This document shows positions 7,282 through 19,799 of a stretch of DNA of 57,110 bases, one piece after another. The position numbers and the translations under genes were made by a program. Origin of the DNA: Elusimicrobiota bacterium (lineage in GTDB: Bacteria > Elusimicrobiota > Elusimicrobia > F11). Position 1 is the first letter of the stretch, and every line of letters begins with the position of its first letter. The notes under the pieces are model-generated. The model was not told where the DNA came from. It did not search any database and saw only the letters and a list, made by a program, of their open reading frames with translations. The stretch spans positions 1-57,110 of the forward strand of contig JBJXGI010000063.1 in assembly GCA_046153645.1 (NCBI GenBank). The letters are read 5' to 3'.

Positions 7282-8232
7282 TTAATTGAGACGGCTTATA
7301 ACTTTAAAATTTAAAGTTTCTTTATCCACGTCGGCTATTTCTTTTAGTTTTCTTATTCCACCGACCCTTTCCATATAAATCACCACATCAAAAGCGGAAA
7401 TAATTTGTTGTCTTACCACTGAAATCGGCCATTTCGGAGACGCCATGGAAAGCAATACTTCTAAACGATAAAGAGCTTCTTGGGCTGAATTGGCATGCAA
7501 GGTTGTCATAGATCCCTTATGCCCCGTATTCATCGCTTGAATAAGAGGTAATACTTCCTCCCCCCTACACTCACCCATCAAAATTCGATCCGGCCTCATT
7601 CGAAGGCAATTAATGACCAAATCCTTCATGGAAATTTCGCCTTGCCCTTCAGTATTTTTTAAACGGGTTTCCATTCGGACAACATGAGGCTTTTGAATAT
7701 TAAGCTCAGCGGTATCTTCAAGAGTTAGAATTCGTTCATCTTCATTTACAAGTTGAGAAATAACATTCATAAGCGTTGTTTTCCCCGAACCGGTATTTCC
7801 ACAAATAAGAATATTACTCCTATTGTGAATAACATTTTCCAGTAAAACGGTGTGCTCAGGAGAAATGCTCTTCACGTAAACGAGATCATTTAAAGAATGA
7901 AAATTTTGAGTGAATTTACGAATGGTTAAGATAGGACCATCAATAGCAACAGGAGGAAGGACAATATGAACTCGAGAGCCGTCCGGAAGACGCGTATCAC
8001 AAAAAGGAGCCGCAATATCTACCCGACGATTTCCATGAGAGACGATTTGATCAATAACAGATTTCAGATGATTTTCAGAATCAAAGCTTTCCGTTGCTTT
8101 AATCACTTGACCCATTTTTTCAATGAAAATATGGTTAAACTTAATAACCATAATTTCCTGGACCATCGAATCATTTAAAAAACCACGAAGAGGGCCGAGA
8201 ATACCAGACAACACATCACTTTGAGCTAACAT
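7282..8232 (-). CDS. cpaF: CpaF/TadA pilus assembly ATPase (short, lacks the usual N-terminal extension)
   Basis: DTRLPDGSRV, GNTGSGKTT, LRMRPDRILMGECRG and AMNTGHKGSMTTLHANS motifs. Confidence 0.95.
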   Translation of the reverse strand: MLAQSDVLSGILGPLRGFLNDSMVQEIMVIKFNHIFIEKMGQVIKATESFDSENHLKSVIDQIVSHGNRRVDIAAPFCDTRLPDGSRVHIVLPPVAIDGPILTIRKFTQNFHSLNDLVYVKSISPEHTVLLENVIHNRSNILICGNTGSGKTTLMNVISQLVNEDERILTLEDTAELNIQKPHVVRMETRLKNTEGQGEISMKDLVINCLRMRPDRILMGECRGEEVLPLIQAMNTGHKGSMTTLHANSAQEALYRLEVLLSMASPKWPISVVRQQIISAFDVVIYMERVGGIRKLKEIADVDKETLNFKVISRLN

Positions 8233-8281
8233 AACTTCCTCCTATAACAGATAATAAGGAGGGGTTATTTTTGGAGAGGAT

Positions 8282-8620
8282 CTAATTTGAAGGGGTTTCT
8301 AAATTTGATTCTTGAACTTTTTTATTTTTTTCAGCAACAACAGAAACACTATAATCAGCGGCTTTTAAATTCAAGGTGATTTCAGCGTCAATTTTTTCAA
8401 TCCAACGTTTAAAATAAAAAATGCCACCGCCAATCAACAAAAGAAAAACCAACCAAAAACCCATACTGGGCCGAACATAAAGCTGCCAAAGCGGAACCTT
8501 TGGCTTGGCAAACATCACTTTAAAACAGGAAAGACAACAATACGCTCGAAGAGGGTTTTTAGCACCACAATGGGGACAAATAATTTCTTGTTTAGGGTCA
8601 ACCGAATATTTATCCATCAA
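8282..8620 (-). CDS. Zinc-ribbon membrane protein
   Basis: CPHCG...CLSC followed by one TM helix. Confidence 0.7.
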   Translation of the reverse strand: MMDKYSVDPKQEIICPHCGAKNPLRAYCCLSCFKVMFAKPKVPLWQLYVRPSMGFWLVFLLLIGGGIFYFKRWIEKIDAEITLNLKAADYSVSVVAEKNKKVQESNLETPSN

Positions 8621-8622
8621 TG

Positions 8623-9375
8623 TTATATTCCTTGAATTATATTTTTTACACTCACAGAATTTAAATGCCCTTGATCTTTTTCTATAGGTGAAGCCAGTAA
8701 GATTGTAACATTACCAATACTTTGCGCCAACGCCAATCGAGGCCCTTTTTCCAGGGGTGCCATAACAGTGACATAATAATTTTCTTTTTCAAAGTATTCA
8801 GCTGAATGATTTTTTGTTTTTCCGCCCCCCCATACTTCTTGATCTACAGCCAAAACAGAAACATTCGACAACATAGGAACAGCCTTGTCTTCAAATGTCC
8901 AAATCAAATGAATTAAGTCGCCGGGTTTCAATAATCCGGCCAAGGATGCTTCACGCGAACATCGAAATGTCATAGCGATAAAACCTTCTTCTAGGTTCCA
9001 GGCCAAGCCCAGATCCGAAGCGCCTCCTTTTAATTTTTTCAGATAAATAATTTCGCCTTTTAATAAAGGTATACCAACTCGATACCTCCAATCACCAATT
9101 TTATTTTTTAAGTCTTCAATAGAAGACAGTCGCTGATAATCATGATTCGATATAAAAACCTCTTTTTCCTCAATCATATCAGGGATCACAATTTGACCCA
9201 CCTCTAAATCCTTCTTGGCAACGAATACCTTCTGAGATTTCAAATTTTGTTTTAATGAAGACTCTGTTTTTGATAAATATCGGTAAGATAAACTCATTGC
9301 ACCCATTGCCAAAAATATACCGAGCAAAAGATTTTTATTTTTATAATTTAATTTCATCCTGATGTTCCTCCTCAA
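8623..9375 (-). CDS. cpaB: Flp pilus assembly protein CpaB/RcpC
   Basis: N-terminal TM, SAF-like VFVAKKDL, and LAGLLKPGDLIHL...NVSVLAVD. Confidence 0.85.
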   Translation of the reverse strand: MRRNIRMKLNYKNKNLLLGIFLAMGAMSLSYRYLSKTESSLKQNLKSQKVFVAKKDLEVGQIVIPDMIEEKEVFISNHDYQRLSSIEDLKNKIGDWRYRVGIPLLKGEIIYLKKLKGGASDLGLAWNLEEGFIAMTFRCSREASLAGLLKPGDLIHLIWTFEDKAVPMLSNVSVLAVDQEVWGGGKTKNHSAEYFEKENYYVTVMAPLEKGPRLALAQSIGNVTILLASPIEKDQGHLNSVSVKNIIQGI

Positions 9376-9727
9376 TAATTAATGATTCTTCTAATGGCAT
9401 ATTTTTTATAAGCGCTTTAATTTTGATCTCGTAAAGCTCAAAAAATAATGCTGAGGGAAATTTTGTAAACCGATGTATAGAGATGTCTTTAAGAAGTTTT
9501 CCATAACCTGATGTTTCCTGAAAATATTTCCTTAAAGCAAGCGCTGCTTCATTCTCATTAATATTTTCTTTCGCGACCAATTTAGCACCTATCCTCGCCG
9601 CCGATATCATATGGAGCCGCAATTGTTGAATCTCTAGCAGTCCAATCATAGATATCAGAATAATGGGATACAAACTGATCATGAAAATAAATTCCACCAA
9701 TATTCCTCCACGTTCAATTTTGAACAC
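9341..9727 (-). CDS. TadE-like pseudopilin
   Basis: RG-GILVEF prepilin-like cleavage site, hydrophobic helix, SAARIGAK. Confidence 0.7.
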   Translation of the reverse strand: MFKIERGGILVEFIFMISLYPIILISMIGLLEIQQLRLHMISAARIGAKLVAKENINENEAALALRKYFQETSGYGKLLKDISIHRFTKFPSALFFELYEIKIKALIKNMPLEESLIIEEEHQDEIKL

Positions 9728-10469
9728 TTTCCAAACTCACTTTAAAAAATGGATATCGGAAAGGAAGAAATTTATTTTCAAATATGAGATCACTTTCATT
9801 TTCCGGGAATCCACTATTGAAGCCTTTCTCTTTGGCCAATCGAGATTGAATTCGTCCTCTATATTGAGACCTTACTTTCCAATTCCATAACCCAACCATT
9901 GATTGGAATTGGAATTGTTTTTCTGCCGTCAACATGGACTCATTTCCTTCCTCGAGATTAATTCCAGGTAACTTCCAAAGCCGTTTATACCACAGCCCTT
10001 GGACAAAAAGTTTTTCACCAAATTGATTAATAATAACGCCATCTTTTGGTTCCAACTCAAGCTGAGAAGTTTTAATGCCGGTGGAAAACGAAGAAAAACT
10101 AGACACGTCATAGACCTTCTTCATTAAGTTCTGATAAGACGTTAATCGTGCTTTATAAGCCGGAATGGCATTCTTTAATTCTTTTGCTTTTTGGAGAATG
10201 AACGCACGATCAACCTCGGTAAAGGCCAATTGACGAGACCCATTAAGAAATATTTTTGAACCAAAATCATTCCACCGATAGGGAATAGTTTCCCAAATTT
10301 GAGATTTGAGTCTTAAAAGTGAACAAAGGAGCGCTTCTCCTTTAGAGTTTATTTTTTCAACCTGAATAACAACCTGCGAAACGCATAAAACAAATTGGAA
10401 ATACATAAAAATAATGAGAAGAAAAAATATAAACATCACCAATACTGAACCCTTACATTTTTGATTCAT
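9714..10469 (-). CDS. TadG-like pilus-associated protein
   Basis: KG-SVLVMF prepilin-like N-terminus; position within the tad cluster. Confidence 0.55.
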   Translation of the reverse strand: MNQKCKGSVLVMFIFFLLIIFMYFQFVLCVSQVVIQVEKINSKGEALLCSLLRLKSQIWETIPYRWNDFGSKIFLNGSRQLAFTEVDRAFILQKAKELKNAIPAYKARLTSYQNLMKKVYDVSSFSSFSTGIKTSQLELEPKDGVIINQFGEKLFVQGLWYKRLWKLPGINLEEGNESMLTAEKQFQFQSMVGLWNWKVRSQYRGRIQSRLAKEKGFNSGFPENESDLIFENKFLPFRYPFFKVSLESVQN

Positions 10470-10876
10470 AAAGAATTAATAACCCAATCATGAGTTGTTA
10501 GTTTTTTATAAAAAGGAAAAAATCCAAATCGACGCTGTATAGTAAAGGAAAAATTCCAAATAACAATATTTTTTAAATAGGGGAACGTTTGGACCGAATA
10601 CTTAATTTCACTTACTTTCAAATGTTGCTTATGAAGAGATTGAACCGCGTAGCTTCTGGCGTCTTCAGGCGTTTTAAATGACTTGCCTTCAATATGCTGA
10701 ATTAGATGAATAACAGTGCGACGCAAAAAAATCTTCTCAAGCCCCAACAAACCAACATCAAACAAGACCAAAAAAAACAAACCAATTAAAGGAAAAATAA
10801 AAGCAGCCTCAACCGTGGCATTTCCAAGGTTTATAAACAAAAAATATCTATTTTTTTGACAATGAATTTTTCCCAT
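10466..10876 (-). CDS. TadE-like pseudopilin
   Basis: G-NATVEAAFIFP motif. Confidence 0.75.
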   Translation of the reverse strand: MGKIHCQKNRYFLFINLGNATVEAAFIFPLIGLFFLVLFDVGLLGLEKIFLRRTVIHLIQHIEGKSFKTPEDARSYAVQSLHKQHLKVSEIKYSVQTFPYLKNIVIWNFSFTIQRRFGFFPFYKKLTTHDWVINSL

Positions 10877-11843: not shown

Positions 11844-13483
11844 TATCGCTTAAACTTCCTATTATTTTTTTCACCAAAACCAAGACTGGCCCCAATATTA
11901 AAAATGAGTCGCGATTTTCGGTCATTATTCTGAAGAGCATAGGCGACATCTATACGAATAAATCCTGGATCTACTGAACGAGATGGTGCAAATCGAAGCC
12001 CCAGCCCCACATTGCTTTTCACCTTGTTCATTGACAGTTTTTCTCCTTCCCGAGCTATCACACCCATATCAGCAAACACAGCCCAACCCCAGTGCATGAG
12101 GCTTAACCAATCATATAATAGGATTTGGCGATCTTCTAAAGTGAGTAAAACCTTTTTATTTCCATCAAATTGACGAATAGAATATCCTCGGAGCCCGTTT
12201 TCACCACCCAACAGCAGTTGATCCTCAGGATCTGGATTAATCAACGTTTTATATTCTAAACGAGAAAAAGCGGTATGCGATTTCCACCAATCTTTAAAAA
12301 AATAAAAACTGACCAATCGACTCGTTCCAGCTATTGTTTTTCCACTTTCATATCGAGAATCGTACTCATAATGGTTCATCCAATACTGTTTTGGGAAAAA
12401 GGAAAAATTCTTAGTGAACTTGGTTCTGTAATGGATAGAGTTATGAGTGGCACCTAAACTTTTAAGTGATGGCCCCCCCTCTATTGTAGCTTGCCATCCT
12501 AAATTAATATCTTCAACTCGATCAAAGGTAAAAAGTCCTTGCTCTTTAATAAATCTCTGCCGGGAAAATTCGAACCCACTTAAAATAACACTGTGTGTCC
12601 TTCTTTGAGGTAATTGAATAGAAGAAAAGGGCTCCATATTCGAAAATCGACTCTCATCAAATTCATAGGCGCCGAACCAACGGATAATTTTATCAGAACT
12701 CTCTACAATTTTATGCGAGTAAAAAGCCCGCCCATAAGCTTCTTTCTGATCAAATTTAGAAATAATATTTCTATCCCTATAAAATTCAATTTCGTTGTTT
12801 GCTTTTCTCCACTGAACACCCTGCGATGAAGGGGTATAACGCGAAAAATAAGGCCGACTTAAATCAACAACCAATTCATTTCCTTTATTATCACCGGCGT
12901 AAGTACTTGCCAATTCCCATCTGGTTTTTAAAAATTGACGGTCTCTAAAAAAGTACCCGTTTCCAAAACGATCGGCGTCTTGACGAACATAAGCCCCCAC
13001 AACCATTCCTTGGCCAAGAAAATTATTTTCTAAAATACCAAAACGGTAATAGTTTTCGCCTCCCGCGGCTCCATATGTGAGTTGAATGGAAGTGGTCCAA
13101 ACATCTTGAGTTTCAATCAAAATATCTACAGATTCTTCATCAATGACTTGTGCCTGAATGACAACCGACCTGAAAATGGGGCGCCGCCTCAAAATGCGTT
13201 CTGACTCTTCGAGCTTTTCTAAATCAATAAAATTTCCCTCTTGAAACAGAATTTCTCGACGAATAAAACTCTCTTTCGTGACAATATGAAGACGATTGGC
13301 TAGGGAAAAAGGAAAATCTTTTTGAAAAGGGGTTCCATCAAAAAGATTTTTTCTGTTAATAAGAATATGACGAATTTTCTGTGATTGGACTTGAGTAAAA
13401 GCTGGTGAAATCAATCCGAAAAGAATGGCTAGGAATAAAGTACGCCAAATAAGAAAACTAAACCGCAAGTTGTCGAGACACAA
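11843..13483 (-). CDS. Omp85/BamA-TamA family outer-membrane protein
   Basis: POTRA-like segment (TKESFIRREILF..G...ESERILR), ENNFLGQG, LGGENGLRGY, GLGLRF and IRIDVAY. Confidence 0.9.
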   Translation of the reverse strand: MCLDNLRFSFLIWRTLFLAILFGLISPAFTQVQSQKIRHILINRKNLFDGTPFQKDFPFSLANRLHIVTKESFIRREILFQEGNFIDLEKLEESERILRRRPIFRSVVIQAQVIDEESVDILIETQDVWTTSIQLTYGAAGGENYYRFGILENNFLGQGMVVGAYVRQDADRFGNGYFFRDRQFLKTRWELASTYAGDNKGNELVVDLSRPYFSRYTPSSQGVQWRKANNEIEFYRDRNIISKFDQKEAYGRAFYSHKIVESSDKIIRWFGAYEFDESRFSNMEPFSSIQLPQRRTHSVILSGFEFSRQRFIKEQGLFTFDRVEDINLGWQATIEGGPSLKSLGATHNSIHYRTKFTKNFSFFPKQYWMNHYEYDSRYESGKTIAGTSRLVSFYFFKDWWKSHTAFSRLEYKTLINPDPEDQLLLGGENGLRGYSIRQFDGNKKVLLTLEDRQILLYDWLSLMHWGWAVFADMGVIAREGEKLSMNKVKSNVGLGLRFAPSRSVDPGFIRIDVAYALQNNDRKSRLIFNIGASLGFGEKNNRKFKR

Positions 13484-14300
13484 ACCGGATAACAGTTTCC
13501 GGGGTGGGATCTTTTAAAAGAAGAGTTTGTATGTTTTTCAAGATTTGTGAGAACTCCTGTTGTAACTCTTTAAAAATTAGTAACGAAGCGGGGTTACTGG
13601 TGTATGTTACTGCACAAGTACCGTACTTGTCATTAGAAATTGGTGAAGTATACATACCAAACCAATCAACCAACTCGGTGAGATGCTGAGACCTTTGAGA
13701 ATCTTCTTTAATAAGTAAATTGACTACCTCTGGGAGCTTTTTCATGTCTGGCAAGGAAAAGAAAGAAATGCCATTGGTATCATCCTCTGAGCGATTCGCG
13801 ACAAAAAGCCTCCATAAACTTCCAAAAGTAGGATCTTTAACAATGCTTTGAGGCTGCCAGAAAGGAACCCAATTAATACTTAACTTACCAGAATAAGACC
13901 CCTCTAAATAATAAACACATCCTTGACCTTTTAAAAAAGTTTGCCGGTCTGACTCTTTTAAATTACGCCAGGCCAAATCTTTTAAGCTCCCTGGAAAAAT
14001 GACAAATAAATTAGATCCACCTATTTTCTTTAACATTGAAAGGAATATGGCATCAAATAAACTCTGGGAGTGGGTAATATTCCAATAATCACTTAAACGT
14101 TTTATATCGCCATCTATATCTGTTTTATAACTCCACCAGGGGAATAAGGCCTGCCGGGCCTCAACTGTCATTGACCAAATAGACATTTTAGGATCATGCA
14201 CGTCGTAGATATGATACTGAGGGTTAACCAATTTCTTGAAATCTATATCCTTGGCTAACTCTCCAGCGTCTTCATTTAATTTAATAACATCAATTCCCAT
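13458..14300 (-). CDS. Hypothetical protein
   Basis: Long ORF with an AAGGA SD 7 nt before ATG 14300; no family recognised. Confidence 0.6.
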   Translation of the reverse strand: MGIDVIKLNEDAGELAKDIDFKKLVNPQYHIYDVHDPKMSIWSMTVEARQALFPWWSYKTDIDGDIKRLSDYWNITHSQSLFDAIFLSMLKKIGGSNLFVIFPGSLKDLAWRNLKESDRQTFLKGQGCVYYLEGSYSGKLSINWVPFWQPQSIVKDPTFGSLWRLFVANRSEDDTNGISFFSLPDMKKLPEVVNLLIKEDSQRSQHLTELVDWFGMYTSPISNDKYGTCAVTYTSNPASLLIFKELQQEFSQILKNIQTLLLKDPTPETVIRFVSRQLAV

Positions 14301-14425
14301 AACATTTTCCTTTGACAAAAATGTAGCAGGGATGTCATTAAATTGCCATATTGAGTGACCAGAGTCACAGACGGAAAAACGAGTTGATTTTCAGTATTAA
14401 TTATGGAATGTGTTTTTAATTATTC

Positions 14426-15001
14426 TTAACTGGCTAAGAGTTGCTCTACTTTTTTAAGTAATTGTTTCGGTATAAATGGCTTGGCGAGAAAGTCATTGGC
14501 CCCAGAATCAAGAATCCTTTTTTGATTGGCTGGTGTAACATATCCAGTAATGGCTAGAACTTTTGTCTTTTTCTTTTTCTCAGTCTTTTTCATTGAAGCG
14601 CAAATATCAAAACCATCAACACCCGGCAGATACAAGTCTAAAACAACCAAATCTGGTTTAAACGAAACCCATTTTTGTCCCGCAGAAAACCCATCCTTAG
14701 CGGTTTCAACAATGAATGGAATAGATATTTTCTTTAAAGACCGCAAAATGATTTTTAACAATTCCGCGTCATCATCTACAACTAAAATTCGCCTTTCTTG
14801 ATTTTTTAACTCATCAGGAATGGGCATTTTATATTTATTAAAAAATTCAACGAGATCTTGCTCTTGAATGCGGCGGTGACCTCCGGGGGTTTTATAAGCC
14901 TTTAATTTCCCTTGATTAACCCAAGACATGACAGTGGTGATATCTACCGAGCAAAACTGGCTCACTTGGAATGTGGTATAGATTCGATCAGGCATAAACA
15001 T
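14426..15001 (-). CDS. Response regulator with N-terminal excisionase/MerR-like HTH (HTH_17) and C-terminal receiver domain
   Basis: YTTFQVSQFCSVDITTVMSWVNQGKLKAYKTPGGHRRI; receiver motifs VVDDD, LDLYLPG, ITG and KP. Confidence 0.92.
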   Translation of the reverse strand: MFMPDRIYTTFQVSQFCSVDITTVMSWVNQGKLKAYKTPGGHRRIQEQDLVEFFNKYKMPIPDELKNQERRILVVDDDAELLKIILRSLKKISIPFIVETAKDGFSAGQKWVSFKPDLVVLDLYLPGVDGFDICASMKKTEKKKKTKVLAITGYVTPANQKRILDSGANDFLAKPFIPKQLLKKVEQLLAS

Positions 15002-15085
15002 TCTCTCCGTACGATAACATATTAAGCATTTTAGCTCATTTTCCGACGATTAAAAGAAAATAAATGACGGAAAGAAAAAATAAAA

Positions 15086-15126
15086 CTTATTATACATATT
15101 ATTCATATTTATCATATAATTCATAT
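15086..15126. promoter_or_regulatory. Five direct repeats at exact 9-bp period in the divergent promoter
   Basis: CTTAT 15086, then CATAT at 15095, 15104, 15113 and 15122; overlaps TATAAT at 15116-15121. Confidence 0.6.
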
Positions 15127-15131
15127 ATTAG

Positions 15132-16271
15132 ATGCAGATCTCTCAACCGGCTCTTATGACTGATCGTCGTATCACCAATCGGTGGGTGCCATACCGGCAT
15201 TATCCGTCATTTTTATTTATTCATCGCCTTGGAATTGCTGTCCCCATTAAAAAAATAAATGATGTTAATCAGCAGGGCCTATCCTGCTTTATCGCACAAA
15301 AACTTGAGTCCAAAGAAAGAATTCAATTGGGAGTTCAAATCGGATCCCAAACAAAAGAGTCGATAGAAATACCAGGGGAGGTTCTAAGCACAGAACCACA
15401 TTCAAATATTCCATCCTTATATATATGCCGCATCAAAGTTTTACCTACCATTGAAACTCAATCCAAAATAATTAATTTTCTAAATAGACTTAACAGCGGC
15501 AAAGATGGCATATGGGATAGGAGAGGTGCTGGGCGACAAGCTAATTGCTGGAAAATATACAACCCTCAGCTATACGCAACCCACCAATTAAGCCGTGAAA
15601 ATGAAAACATTACAGTTCGTAACCTTAGAGCAGATGACATTGAAGAACTGCTACGAGTCGAAATATCAGCTTGGGGTGAAGAAATGGCGGCCACTCGAGA
15701 AATGTTTCAATCTAGACTTGAAACGTTTCCAGAAGGAATGATTGGTGCTTTTTCTCAGGAAAAACTATTGGGATATATTTGTCTCATTCGATTTAATAGC
15801 TCTTCTTGTGATAAAGAAATTACCTGGCTTGGGGTGACAGATAACGGATTTATTAAAAATTCCCACAATCCTGAAGGTGATTGTCTCTACGGAGTAAGCC
15901 TTAGCTCATCTCCAGGCTCACCCAAAGAGTTGGCGGTTAAACTCATTAAAGCGGCCGCCAAGCTGTCCATGAGATTAGAATTGAAGGGTGTTTTATTTGG
16001 AGCAAGAGTCCCGAGCTATCATAAATATGCCGCGAAAATGACAATTGATGAATATATGAAAGCCCGAACATCAAAAGGAAAAATGCTAGATCCTGAGCTT
16101 TACTTTTATCGCCAAGTAAACGCTTGCCCCCTAAAACCCCTTCCCAACTATTTTGAAGACCCTGAAAGTCTTAACTACGGTGTATTGGGTTTTTTTGAAA
16201 ACCCTCTCTATGCACTTCAAAAGAGAGAATTTCCCTTTTTTTTCGACAGCGTTAGCATTCATTTCACATAA
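15132..16271 (+). CDS. PilZ domain fused to a YkwB-like GNAT acyltransferase
   Basis: RRITNR and DVNQQG (PilZ RxxxR and D/NxSxxG-like); GNAT motifs SRLETFPEG, WLGVTDNGFI..SHNPEGD.LYGV, GARVPSY, DPELYF and NYFEDPESLNYG...ENP. Confidence 0.8.
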   Translation: MQISQPALMTDRRITNRWVPYRHYPSFLFIHRLGIAVPIKKINDVNQQGLSCFIAQKLESKERIQLGVQIGSQTKESIEIPGEVLSTEPHSNIPSLYICRIKVLPTIETQSKIINFLNRLNSGKDGIWDRRGAGRQANCWKIYNPQLYATHQLSRENENITVRNLRADDIEELLRVEISAWGEEMAATREMFQSRLETFPEGMIGAFSQEKLLGYICLIRFNSSSCDKEITWLGVTDNGFIKNSHNPEGDCLYGVSLSSSPGSPKELAVKLIKAAAKLSMRLELKGVLFGARVPSYHKYAAKMTIDEYMKARTSKGKMLDPELYFYRQVNACPLKPLPNYFEDPESLNYGVLGFFENPLYALQKREFPFFFDSVSIHFT

Positions 16272-16285
16272 ATCTAGGAGGGCTC

Positions 16286-17302
16286 ATGAACACTGATATA
16301 ACCATCACCCCAGTTAAAACTCTAGTTGAAGAATCAAAATCTGTTTTTTCAAGTACAGATTTAATTTACGATGGTGTTTTTGGAAGAACCATTTCAAGGT
16401 GGACTTTACTTCTTCCAGGTTCAGGCTGTGCGTGGGCCAGAAAAAAACACAAAGGATGCAGTTTCTGTGCTTTCAATGATCGTATCGACGAAGTCACAGG
16501 TGGCCGTCTCATTCCGTTTGAAGAAATGATGGATTTCTTTCACTTCGGATTAGGAAAAATTGGCGCGGCAGAACCAAATCTTTTATCCCTCTTTAACGGC
16601 GGGAATTTTATTAACAATGACGAAATTGTGGAACCTGCTCAAATGGCCATTTTGGAATTCGCTCAACACCATCCAACACTTGAAAAAGTTCTCTTTGAAT
16701 CGAAATTAGAATATTTATCTAACCGGAAACTCGAGGCGTGCTTAAAAGCAATTGGAAATAAGAAAATTCGCATTGGCATTGGTCTTGAATGCAAAGACGA
16801 TTATTTAAGAAATGTCATTATTAACAAAGGACTTTCAAAAGAAGCCTATGAAAAAACCCTTAAAAGACTTAAAAGCATGGGAATTGAAGTGCAATCCTAC
16901 GTATTTATGAAACCTTATTCAGTAACCGAGAAAAAAGCCATCCAAGAAGCCATCGATACTGTTGAATACGCTATTGACTGTGGCTCAGACATTGTAATGC
17001 TAGAAGCAGCGATGGTTCAAAAAGGAACTGCTTTCGAGATTGCGTATAATAAAGGAGAATTTCGTTCCCCTTGGTTATGGAGTATTAAAGAGGTGGTGAA
17101 CAGGGTCGAAAAGTACCCTCAGTTTAACGTAGGGATATTTGATGAAGAACCCAAACCAATCTCTTATCCAAAAAATTGCGATCATTGCACAGATCGATTT
17201 AACCAGGCTTTCCATGTGTTTCGACAAACACATGAATCATTATTATTAAAACAGATTGAATGCGAATGTCGATCCCAATGGGAGAACGTTATTCGATCAT
17301 GA
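16286..17302 (+). CDS. Radical SAM protein of the TIGR01210/RaSEA (archaeosine lyase)-like family
   Basis: GCAWARKKHKGCSFC (CX9CX2C), ESKLEY, GIGLEC, INKG, YVFMKP, VQKGT, FRSPWLWS, NCDHC and CEC..W all match the RaSEA pattern; GGAGG SD. Confidence 0.85.
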   Translation: MNTDITITPVKTLVEESKSVFSSTDLIYDGVFGRTISRWTLLLPGSGCAWARKKHKGCSFCAFNDRIDEVTGGRLIPFEEMMDFFHFGLGKIGAAEPNLLSLFNGGNFINNDEIVEPAQMAILEFAQHHPTLEKVLFESKLEYLSNRKLEACLKAIGNKKIRIGIGLECKDDYLRNVIINKGLSKEAYEKTLKRLKSMGIEVQSYVFMKPYSVTEKKAIQEAIDTVEYAIDCGSDIVMLEAAMVQKGTAFEIAYNKGEFRSPWLWSIKEVVNRVEKYPQFNVGIFDEEPKPISYPKNCDHCTDRFNQAFHVFRQTHESLLLKQIECECRSQWENVIRS

Positions 17303-17311
17303 GAGGGTTTA

Positions 17312-19333
17312 TTGGCGGATTATTTTTTTCTCGTTTTTGTATTGGGAATTTCTGGGTGGCTGAGCGTCAAAGTTTATGAACGACGCTCCAACAACCCAGC
17401 CAACCGTGTATTTGCATTTTTTATTTGGTGCGTGTGGGTTTGGGCGCTTTGTAATTTTTTACAAGCGGAGATTTCAAACAACCTTCTCTTAAGAATTTTA
17501 TTTGGTATAGATTTTTTTGCGGCTATTTTTGCCGCTTATTTTATCTTGATATTTTGCCTTTCCTTTCCCACCTCAAAAATAAATCCAAAAACTCAATTAG
17601 CCCTCATTTCTCCCATTATATTTTTAGGAATTAGTTCATTTACCAAACTTATCATCACCGATGTCACTTTTGAAATCGGGAAACAGGCCATCTATATTCC
17701 AGGCCCGCTATTCCCTCTTTACGCTGTTGTTCATGCAAGTTATGTTTTTATTGGTATTGGTTATTTATTTTATCGATGGCGAAATTTAACCGGCCTGGCC
17801 AAAGTTCAAGTCACCTATATTCTTTTAGGACTCAGTATTTTTTGTGTGATTGCTATCTTCGTTAATCTCATTCTGGCAGCCCTTTTCCCAATTCCTGTTT
17901 TTATTTCTCGAATTGGTATCTATGGAATATTTCCTCTGACCGCCTTCCCTGCCTATGCCATGATCCGCTACCGCTTAATGGATGCCAAACTGATGGTTCG
18001 AGCGACTGGGCACTATTTACTCACCACTGGAATATTAAGCTTTTTCTTCGCAATTTTAATCGCTGCCATTACCAACAACTTTAAAATTAGTTTTTTTTCA
18101 TTTCTTATCTTTTTATTACTCCCTGCCCTTCAAAAACAGCTATCGAACCGTATCGGTTTATGGAAAGTTCAAAGTGGATTGTTAAACCGTGGTCAAATTA
18201 AACAAATCAATTCCATTTCTGATCGAATTAAAAACTCTGGGTATAAAATCTCAGAATTAGCCCAAACCGTAGGAGAAATTCTTCTTGACAGTTTTCCCGT
18301 ATCAAATTGTGCCATCTATATTATGAATGACAGTGGCACACATTTTTCTTTTGAGGCTCCCTCCCAATTTAAAATGAAATTTCCCTCACAGATCCTTCAA
18401 AATGACAGTCTTACAAAACGATTGGAAAATTACCAAAGAGATTTAATCAATACGGTTGAATTTGATTTGCTCATTCAAACCAAATCAACAATAGCCGTTC
18501 CTTTTATTGTTTTAGACCGAGTTGTGGGTTTTATATTAATGGGAGAAAAAGAAGATAAAAAACCTTTTTTTACAAATGAAATAAACGAATTATCATTTAT
18601 TGCGAATGAAACCTCAGTGGCACTGCGTTATGTTTTAGCCGTATCAAAAGCCGCCTCAGAAACAAAACAATGGGCACATAACATGAATCAATACTTAAAA
18701 CCACTTGCTCATGGTTTTAATGTACTGGCGGATATAGACCCCCATATCGCAGAAAATCCTGTTAAAAGAGAAGTGTATCAGAGGATTCAACGCCCTTTAA
18801 ATCGCTTGGCTGATTTCCTTTATTATTTAACTCATCAATCTAGAATGATAGATGAATCCTTACGAAACCGATATCATTTATCTCTTGTAGATTTAGAGGA
18901 AATTATTGATAAAGGTGTTTTCAGTTATCGTTTTAGTTTGGATAAAAAAAATATTTATTATGATCGAAAAATGGCGATACCAAAACAAAGTATTATGGGA
19001 CACACTCAAGACCTCATTTCCCTTTTTGAAGGGTTAACCAGCAATGCCGTTCGTTACACTCCCATCAATGGCACTATTAAAGTAAGAAGCAAAATAAATG
19101 GGGAAACAATTGAAATTCAATATGAAAATGATGGGCCATCTATTCCGACCGATAATTTAAGCCAAATTTTCAATGAAGGATTTCAAATAAAAAATGGCTT
19201 CGAAGGAACGGCTGGGCTTGGTTTAGCTAACACGAAGAGAATTATTGAGATGCATGGGGCTACCATTGAAGCGGAAAATATCGATCAAAATCAAGGCGTT
19301 AGATTCACGATGCGATTTCCTTATAAGAAATAA
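17312..19333 (+). CDS. Sensor histidine kinase: HisKA_7TM N-terminus, GAF-like domain, HATPase
   Basis: Multi-TM N-terminus ending YAMIRYRLMD; GAF segment (AVPF...VVGFILMGEKEDKKPF..NEI); H-box WAHNMNQYL; SNAVRY, NDGPSI and GTAGLGL. Confidence 0.9.
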   Translation: MADYFFLVFVLGISGWLSVKVYERRSNNPANRVFAFFIWCVWVWALCNFLQAEISNNLLLRILFGIDFFAAIFAAYFILIFCLSFPTSKINPKTQLALISPIIFLGISSFTKLIITDVTFEIGKQAIYIPGPLFPLYAVVHASYVFIGIGYLFYRWRNLTGLAKVQVTYILLGLSIFCVIAIFVNLILAALFPIPVFISRIGIYGIFPLTAFPAYAMIRYRLMDAKLMVRATGHYLLTTGILSFFFAILIAAITNNFKISFFSFLIFLLLPALQKQLSNRIGLWKVQSGLLNRGQIKQINSISDRIKNSGYKISELAQTVGEILLDSFPVSNCAIYIMNDSGTHFSFEAPSQFKMKFPSQILQNDSLTKRLENYQRDLINTVEFDLLIQTKSTIAVPFIVLDRVVGFILMGEKEDKKPFFTNEINELSFIANETSVALRYVLAVSKAASETKQWAHNMNQYLKPLAHGFNVLADIDPHIAENPVKREVYQRIQRPLNRLADFLYYLTHQSRMIDESLRNRYHLSLVDLEEIIDKGVFSYRFSLDKKNIYYDRKMAIPKQSIMGHTQDLISLFEGLTSNAVRYTPINGTIKVRSKINGETIEIQYENDGPSIPTDNLSQIFNEGFQIKNGFEGTAGLGLANTKRIIEMHGATIEAENIDQNQGVRFTMRFPYKK

Positions 19334-19337
19334 AAAT

Positions 19338-19799
19338 ATGATGAAATATAAAATACTTATTATTGAAGATGATGAAGATACTGCCACTATTCAATCTCTT
19401 TCGTTAGCTCCCCTGGGATTTGACGTGGAAATCATTAATCATGGGAATAAAGCCCTCCTCTTTATTAAACAATGGCAACCTGACATCCTCATTTTAGATT
19501 TGGAACTTCCTGGGAAATCGGGAGTCGAAATTCTCCAAGAACTATCGAAAGAAACAGAATTCAACCAAATGATTATTATTGCCAATACCATACATATGGA
19601 TATAAAAGATGATTTGGGCTTTTCATACTATACCCACTTTTTGAAATGGAAAAATAAAGAACCCACAATGATAAACAAATTATCCAGAGATGAATCAAAA
19701 AGGGCTGACATTCGACATGTTATCGCCACCATGTTAATGGAAAAATTCGGAGTTCTTCCCCCCGCTTTTTCTCAGTGGCTAAAATTAAACCCGGCGTAA
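19338..19799 (+). CDS. Single-domain response regulator with atypical C-terminal half
   Basis: ILIIEDDED and PDILILDLELPGKSG; start placed at ATG 19338, just after the kinase stop. Confidence 0.85.
   Translation: MMKYKILIIEDDEDTATIQSLSLAPLGFDVEIINHGNKALLFIKQWQPDILILDLELPGKSGVEILQELSKETEFNQMIIIANTIHMDIKDDLGFSYYTHFLKWKNKEPTMINKLSRDESKRADIRHVIATMLMEKFGVLPPAFSQWLKLNPA

Follow-up and report, generated by a model that had tools for sequence, protein, structure and literature searches.

A GNAT and HisKA_7TM kinase cassette in an Elusimicrobiota genome points to a probable quorum-sensing-type signal-synthase/receptor system

Analysis of a 57,110-nt stretch of DNA from an Elusimicrobiota bacterium (contig JBJXGI010000063.1 of assembly GCA_046153645.1; the whole stretch is called the window below) points to a quorum-sensing-type signal-synthase/receptor cassette at positions 14426-19799, a candidate for an undescribed chemical signalling system of uncultured bacteria. 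The cassette encodes a PilZ-GNAT protein, a RaSEA-like radical S-adenosylmethionine (SAM) enzyme, a membrane histidine kinase with a seven-transmembrane (7TM) sensor of the HisKA_7TM family and a stand-alone receiver, and lies divergent from a regulator gene. Two findings argue most strongly that the sensor responds to something linked with the enzyme next to it: it is matched to that enzyme while joined to a foreign kinase core, and it carries two characteristic buried polar residues, D67 and R200. The features of the locus were as follows.

14426-15001, minus strand: regulator with HTH_17 (BldC/MerR-like) and Response_reg domains (Pfam), with canonical D76/D122/T152/K174.
15088-15126, plus strand: four 9-bp direct repeats with a CATAT core (repeat scan), probable operator of the HTH_17-receiver family.
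15132-15460, plus strand: divergent PilZ domain fused to the GNAT (alignment to homologues).
15600-16271, plus strand: GNAT domain of the CurA/SxtA/GphF structural clan (sequence and fold match), putative signal synthase and constant core of the module.
16286-17302, plus strand: RaSEA-like radical SAM enzyme of a bacterial clade apart from archaeal RaSEA (TIGR01210, tree), an optional, putative tailoring enzyme.
17312-18000, plus strand: HisKA_7TM sensor of the GNAT/radical-SAM-associated type (D67, R200, N48, N185, Y137; Pfam, trees).
18250-19333, plus strand: GAF domain, atypical dimerization and histidine phosphotransfer domain (H456 followed by Asn) and HATPase core (Pfam, alignment), the core being common to family-level kinases beside other PilZ enzymes.
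19338-19799, plus strand: stand-alone atypical receiver (partial Response_reg match; D54 kept, ANTxHMD at the switch residue, no KP lysine).

All five open reading frames (ORFs) were confirmed in position, with gaps of 14, 9 and 4 nt between the co-oriented genes. This recovered the tightly spaced four-gene run and divergent regulator described in the original prediction, an earlier reading of the letters of the window.

The gene neighbourhoods of relatives indicated that the cassette is conserved. The search began with 14 aligned close relatives of the radical SAM enzyme and kept the 80 best of 521 relatives and the 80 best of 225 (80 genome loci and 80 metagenome loci); merging of loci at least 90% identical reduced 158 rows to 131. 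The neighbourhood counts do not cover P0003/P0022 and P0230, the nearest relatives of the PilZ-GNAT and of the radical SAM enzyme. The tree of these rows contained a clade of 73 (SH-aLRT support 99), separate from 39 archaeal RaSEA rows (support 100) and from 19 other bacterial rows. At the 73 clade loci a GNAT gene was present in 66, a 7TM kinase gene in 53 and both in 52, with most misses at contig ends; where 3 kb was available on both sides (n=20), the GNAT was found at 20/20 loci and the GNAT together with the 7TM kinase at 18/20. Neither gene was found at any of the 58 outside loci. The original prediction had proposed this comparison as a check, and its concern that the genes might not be co-conserved can be set aside because GNAT, radical SAM and 7TM kinase genes recur together. 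These three genes (the triad) occurred in five layouts, divergent and convergent ones included, and some were fused: five proteins had the order GNAT-radical SAM and two the Elp3-like order radical SAM-GNAT, both of the latter being placed outside the clade. Most of the named carriers were Patescibacteria; one record each bore the label Clostridia or Gammaproteobacteria.

The reverse comparison identified which part of the triad is constant. When 400 genomes from the same phylum as one Patescibacteria carrier were searched with a GNAT profile, 14 new matches were obtained (three pairs being close relatives), and a 7TM kinase gene lay within two genes of the GNAT in all 14. A radical SAM gene was present at just one of these loci; an ArgRS-like gene was seen at three, an NNMT-type N-methyltransferase at two and a small membrane domain, separate or fused, at six. 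On these neighbourhoods, the fixed unit is the GNAT with the 7TM kinase, and the radical SAM enzyme is one of several optional add-ons. The proposal that two enzymes and a kinase form the unit was therefore upheld for the GNAT and the kinase only. The methyltransferase is similar to members of SCO2525 and GntF. A stand-alone ArgRS-like family (about 190 residues; L012:1880-2464 and related loci) was present in 16/73 clade rows and was not found in the Elusimicrobiota genome. The fold of this family corresponds to a minimal core of class I aminoacyl-tRNA synthetases (ArgRS as best match, Z 16.5, root-mean-square deviation (rmsd) 3.2 over 171 residues); it lacks the HIGH motif, has invariant E13/H16/D55/C120/E170 and matches the SCO2522 family weakly. 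At one locus, L035:3663-11372 (Amylibacter), the GNAT and radical SAM genes flank a gene for a 1187-residue NACHT protein.

The kinase ORF (17312-19333) scored 41.5 bits for HisKA_7TM, above the cut-off, and matched HATPase_c and, weakly, GAF. H456, N578 and the F and G2 boxes were kept, and there was no match to PF00512 (HisKA). Its core is of a type with the H-box WAHxLNQxLKP; among 392 other genomes of the class, two carry this type, with three copies between them (L237, L238 and L239). The window core grouped with these three kinases (FastTree support 1.0; 39-53% identity) in a tree from which ten kinases without a complete core were excluded. Each of the three is followed by the same atypical receiver as in the window, and receivers of this type were always found behind this core.

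The sensor has different relatives. It is 20-21% identical to the sensors of its three core-mates and 30-35% identical to seven triad sensors, whose own cores are 16-24% identical to that of the window (six measured). In quick trees of the 7TM sensors it fell within a clade of 29/29 triad and 9/12 GNAT-only sensors (support 92), next to the sensors of L003 and L087, two loci whose radical SAM enzymes likewise rank among the closest to that of the window in the radical SAM tree. An approximately unbiased (AU) test rejected the grouping of the window sensor with those of its core-mates (p-AU 0.0004); the kinase-core tree defined the tested group, at a point when a first 7TM tree was already available. 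Across 27 loci, the sensor tracked the radical SAM enzyme and the GNAT when the core was held constant (partial r 0.48 and 0.49; 0/500 permutations), compared with 0.15 and 0.11 for the core given the sensor (62 and 82 of 500 permutations), although these permutation counts overstate significance because related loci are not independent. In addition, buried D67 was present in 29/29 triad sensors versus 1/16 unrelated sensors, and R200 in 27/29 versus 0/16. As judged from these alignments and trees, the kinase is a chimera, with a sensor of the GNAT/radical-SAM type on a core belonging to kinases of other enzymes. Both a stable linkage and a matching of putative synthase and receptor were thereby found, which fits the pairing of enzyme and receptor kinase in the autoinducer layout of the original prediction; the divergent regulator is considered below.

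The core-mates showed which enzymes can occupy the slot before the kinase. The orthologous kinase-receiver pair is preceded by a tandem PilZ-thioesterase in L237:6112-11367, by a PilZ-oxoamine synthase and an amidohydrolase in L238:4885-11428, and by a PilZ-HMG-CoA reductase in L239:5328-10959. The oxoamine synthase scored 167 bits against an alpha-hydroxyketone synthase cut-off of 428. All three cassettes, from two related genomes, contain a FadL porin. The source genome itself has a second cassette (L174:4934-14221) with a PilZ-like domain and HMG-CoA reductase, a FadL porin and four HisKA_7TM genes, of which one lacks the kinase domain. Comparison of these loci indicates that the sensor is exchanged together with the enzyme, as a swappable cartridge, while kinase core and receiver stay. 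Two further arrangements were seen. Directly behind a GNAT cassette, L198:1-4729 encodes a polyprenyl synthase, a NUDIX protein and a terpene-synthase-like protein followed by another 7TM-type kinase, possibly a terpenoid signal cassette. L175:5908-8091 and L239:3044-5215 encode fusions of a 7TM-like domain and GAF with a class III nucleotide cyclase domain, the L239 fusion coming after the kinase-receiver pair.

The PilZ-GNAT ORF (15132-16271) matched Acetyltransf_9 weakly and gave no Pfam score for PilZ. The PilZ assignment of the original prediction nevertheless draws support from homologues: PF07238 scored in 4/5 full-length homologues tested and in two further ones, the alignment matched a Pfam-positive PilZ domain with a probability of 96.5, and RxxxR is kept, with DxSxxG reading DVNQQG (Gln at the Ser site). 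Other GNATs have at their N-terminus a membrane domain, a receiver domain (L087) or no added domain. The C-terminus of the GNATs is a putative amphipathic tail; a small membrane protein is fused or adjacent to some of them (L194, L197, L198, L203, L204, L206, P0058).

By both sequence (E 5e-22) and fold (Z 23.4-24.1, rmsd 2.2 over 190-196 residues), the GNAT belongs to the clan of CurA, SxtA and GphF; protein N-terminal acetyltransferases were the next structural neighbours. The prediction had likened it to LuxI and FeeM, a comparison that did not hold: none of 56 GNAT members matched a LuxI or FeeM profile, and only generic Acetyltransf families scored. Thr355 and His389 are the catalytic residues of CurA-type decarboxylases. 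Neither was present at its column in the 56 GNAT rows; the Thr355 site is Ser, Gly, Ala or Cys and the His389 site is Tyr in 53/56, with A291 and Y326 in the window protein. The P-loop for coenzyme A (CoA) is missing in the window GNAT, its pattern being matched in only 14/56 members. Such a loss is typical of carrier-protein-dependent small-molecule GNATs, according to the accessible part of PMC11685415.

TIGR01210 (RaSEA) was the best family for the radical SAM enzyme, which scored 175 bits against a cut-off of 212; as both other clade members tested just exceed the cut-off (230 and 214 bits), TIGR01210 does not separate the clades. The cluster cysteines C48/C58/C61 were present in 73/73 clade rows, as expected of the radical SAM superfamily, and the SAM-binding motifs GG.F..E, E138, GLE, R175 and K181 were kept. 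Shared with RaSEA were K209-P210, Q245, PxLWS and four C-terminal cysteines (C298/C301/C326/C328). Barrel-lining sites differed, and the basic GxKRGAH loop of the archaeal enzymes was replaced by an acidic, proline-rich FDEEP loop. L002 was excluded from the motif comparison and from the placement of the fusion proteins. The enzyme gave no sequence match to solved structures, and a predicted complex of it with the GNAT scored 0.00 against a mark of 0.32, which weighs neither way. Domain DUF5591 (ArcS-type) was not found in the source genome (2.6 Mb, 99.7% complete) or in five other carriers, with positive archaeal controls. The RaSEA likeness in the original prediction thus holds for the family motifs, but the score, the separate clade and the lack of ArcS indicate that this is not an archaeosine RaSEA.

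The chemistry of RaSEA is a C-N cleavage. In a complex with ArcS, RaSEA turns preQ0-lysine into archaeosine, according to the accessible part of PMC11298593. Among other bacterial RaSEA-like genes, nonribosomal peptide synthetase (NRPS) genes adjoin at 4/18 loci scanned, a carbamoyltransferase gene at two loci and one Streptomyces plasmid, and amidinotransferase-type genes are among the neighbours. Because of this chemistry and these neighbours, we infer that the cassette enzyme acts on a small derivative of a basic amino acid, at the side chain that bears the nitrogen. RaSEA-like domains were also seen fused to TIR (P0183), ABC/NMT1 (P0120), amidinotransferase (P0203) and receiver (P0223) domains. 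A distant RaSEA-like gene adjoins an EamA-type exporter on Clostridium acetobutylicum pSOL1 (L240:5854-7440), and another lies in a cluster with a P450 and a carbamoyltransferase on a Streptomyces plasmid (L241:5851-12509). Both hosts are culturable, which makes them tractable models for the chemistry of the family.

Together, these data lead us to consider it probable, though by no means assured, that a small N-acylated amine is produced by a synthase under c-di-GMP gating, that the radical SAM enzyme tailors this product and that the matched 7TM kinase senses it. Cyclic di-GMP bound to PilZ would switch the GNAT, in whose relatives a receiver domain or nothing stands at this place. The GNAT would then N-acylate a basic amino acid or amine of the Lys, Orn or Arg type with a short acyl group, whose donor need not be a fatty acyl chain on an acyl carrier protein. 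Like RaSEA, the radical SAM enzyme would take a hydrogen next to the side-chain nitrogen and cleave or oxidise the C-N bond, giving the signal a new identity. The product would reach the membrane-embedded 7TM domain, where the conserved Asp67 and Arg200 may hold it, and the atypical kinase core would act on the linked receiver, possibly mainly as a phosphatase or a slow kinase. In this genome, the BldC-like regulator would set cassette transcription from the 9-bp array. Even if the signalling interpretation holds, the exact acylation and radical steps given here are doubtful. The nature of the add-ons, which are small-molecule enzymes (the NNMT-type N-methyltransferase and the ArgRS-like domain), speaks for signalling, as do the NRPS, carbamoyltransferase and amidinotransferase neighbours of other bacterial RaSEA-like genes and the 11 GGDEF matches in the genome.

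Several observations weigh against this account. The co-evolution of sensor and enzyme fits equally well with destruction of an incoming molecule or direct protein contact, and the 27 loci on which it rests are partly related. This cassette has no FadL or exporter gene, the 7TM kinase is missing at two of the 20 well-flanked clade loci (L035, L159), and sister GNATs are fused to a nitrilase-type hydrolase where no such cassette was seen. The phosphotransfer motifs are atypical: the H-box His is followed by Asn or Ser/Thr in 7/7 orthologous cores, the G1-box Asp is Asn, and the receiver is without the usual Thr/Ser and Lys. Phosphotransfer may be weak because of these changes, although their conservation across orthologues argues against decay. 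Finally, of four Patescibacteria carriers tested, all from incomplete genomes, three had no acyl carrier protein (ACP) match and the fourth a weak one, and none had a ketoacyl synthase. A fatty-acyl donor is therefore not general, and a universal fatty-acyl-ACP donor was dropped.

Of the alternatives, we regard it as unlikely that the kinase detects an outside amine-type compound, such as a foreign signal or toxin, which the GNAT and radical SAM enzyme acylate and break. This would account for the sensor-enzyme co-evolution and for FadL as an importer in the sister cassettes, and it suits the C-N hydrolases fused to sister GNATs and the amidohydrolase of L238. However, the alternatives in the enzyme slot are biosynthetic (oxoamine synthase, HMG-CoA reductase, thioesterase, and in L198 polyprenyl synthase with a terpene-synthase-like protein), and gating by PilZ or receiver domains would better suit a synthase. 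Comparably unlikely, in our estimate a shade more so, is a loop confined to the cell, in which the product stays in the membrane as a lipid or inside the cell as a metabolite and is read by the cell's own 7TM domain, with no cell-to-cell signal. The putative amphipathic GNAT tails, the small membrane-protein partners, the intramembrane sensor and the lack of an exporter or porin in this cassette agree with it, but a FadL outer-membrane channel in 3/3 sister cassettes and in the second cassette of this genome implies passage across the envelope.

A further alternative is action on proteins: the GNAT, with the radical SAM enzyme, could modify or bind the kinase or another protein and so relay c-di-GMP or acyl-CoA status to the kinase. 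The lost P-loop, the PilZ and receiver fusions and the structural proximity to protein N-terminal acetyltransferases are in keeping with this. We hold it to be quite improbable, given that unrelated folds take the slot of the GNAT, that methyltransferases for small molecules occur as add-ons and that, in the accessible text of PMC11685415, carrier-protein-dependent small-molecule GNATs lose the P-loop as well. Least credible, and very improbable, is a role in tRNA modification, whether in making archaeosine or through Elp3-like radical chemistry with an acyl-CoA that the GNAT holds. In its favour, the enzyme scores best with TIGR01210, some clade members score above its cut-off, two proteins have the Elp3-like order and the genome encodes TGT and QueC. 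Against this, DUF5591 was not found in the six carriers, the clade is separate from archaeal RaSEA with its basic loop turned acidic and proline-rich, both Elp3-order fusions lie outside the clade, and tRNA modification gives no reason for a matched membrane sensor.

The divergent regulator proved to be separate from the conserved cassette. The 9-bp array noted in the original prediction is real, its score being reached by 0/2000 dinucleotide shuffles. Its CATAT units lie at 15095, 15104, 15113 and 15122, and it is the sole site in the genome with three exact units. HTH_17-receiver genes were found in 19/25 relatives, in one to five copies each, making this a lineage-wide multicopy family, and a significant period-9 array lay upstream of 14/25 of these genes (the window included) versus 6/120 control regions. 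An HTH_17 domain with linked 9-bp direct repeats is characteristic of BldC-like regulators. BldC binds 9-bp direct repeats head to tail, as described in the accessible part of PMC5859096. The regulator here shares with BldC the MerR-like HTH_17 domain and the repeat arrays, and differs, on the same partial source, in its fusion to a receiver domain and in the repeat sequence; its binding is a prediction. No other fetched cassette locus had an HTH_17-like domain, carrying sigma54, OmpR-type or stand-alone receivers instead, and none of the other 24 regulator loci had a cassette gene within 1.5 kb. Period-9 arrays were found in only 3/22 cassette upstream regions at p 0.05 or less, and the array was rejected as a mark of the cassette family. 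On this distribution, the array belongs to the HTH_17-receiver family and is not a conserved feedback arm of the cassette, contrary to the earlier proposal that the regulator is part of the loop.

Control of the cassette promoter by the regulator at this one locus is plausible because the array overlaps the best sigma70-like site of the plus strand (15091-15120), itself a candidate only since the scan gave five sites versus 3.9 expected. Across the class (L208-L232 upstream regions), a TTGACA-like box often directly precedes the period-9 array. Another motif, TTCCG[AT]C, was found upstream of 8/25 HTH_17-receiver genes versus 24/627 controls, and forms an inverted repeat at window positions 15040-15073.

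The cassette has a GC content of 0.36-0.40 versus 0.39 for the genome, and DNA reads over the locus (three of four runs from one study) gave patchy coverage with one difference and no joints. It is rare in its lineage, as no cassette radical SAM gene was found in 11 same-family genomes searched and, across 300 genomes of its phylum, the GNAT profile matched only two nitrilase fusions. A defence-system interpretation was dropped because PADLOC gave generic domain matches only. Downstream of the regulator is a 286-residue ORF (13458-14318, minus strand) with no Pfam or NCBIfam match and none in the fetched loci; at 7282-10876 (minus strand), the translations resemble a Tad/Flp-pilus run (ATPase, CpaB-like, TadE-like).

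CqsA/CqsS, LqsA/LqsS and LuxM/LuxN are quorum-sensing pairs of a synthase and a membrane histidine kinase. The cassette resembles them in encoding an acyl-thioester enzyme beside a polytopic membrane kinase, and the L238 enzyme is of the oxoamine-synthase family, with the same fold as CqsA and LqsA. It differs from CqsA/CqsS-type pairs in its HisKA_7TM sensor, CurA-like GNAT, radical SAM add-on, PilZ fusion and interchangeable enzyme slot. Judged against the accessible part of PMC11298593, it shares with RaSEA/ArcS the radical SAM family and a position downstream of a group-transfer partner, but its enzyme forms a separate clade, lacks ArcS, has a GNAT partner and differs in substrate-facing residues and one loop. 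CurA, GphF and SxtA, as covered by the accessible text of PMC10127204 and PMC11685415, are the best sequence and fold matches of the GNAT, which unlike them stands alone, with no polyketide synthase or ACP nearby and without the decarboxylase Thr/His. With LuxI/FeeM and the Bacteroidota N-acyl-cyclolysine system (PMC13419125, accessible in part) it has in common the GNAT fold, the lost P-loop and a proposed amino-acid N-acylation; it differs in having no LuxI/FeeM family match and in its receptor, a membrane kinase and not a LuxR-type protein. No description of such a combination turned up in a literature search that covered few subscription journals and no supplementary files, in line with the original prediction. 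By its parts, as read from sequence, the cassette is a conserved, previously undescribed variant of the synthase-plus-membrane-kinase design and not a member of any known pair.

HisKA_7TM is a widespread sensor for which the literature found, in its accessible part, names no ligand (PMC5847659). The cassettes supply candidate ligands and, with four enzyme types on one kinase core, a built-in specificity control, which makes the ligand question testable in a laboratory strain. More broadly, we tentatively speculate that HisKA_7TM proteins are the receptors of a modular family of self-made signals in Patescibacteria, Elusimicrobiota and Omnitrophota, with a shared core and receiver, swappable synthase and sensor, and gating by PilZ and c-di-GMP, and that the family would include the first diffusible signal tailored by a radical SAM enzyme, through RaSEA-type C-N cleavage, and read by a histidine kinase. 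If the signalling account is correct, it would give the tiny-genome Patescibacteria a signalling chemistry, tie c-di-GMP directly to the making of signals and assign a first function to the bacterial RaSEA-like clade, whose members databases will mislabel as archaeosine enzymes.

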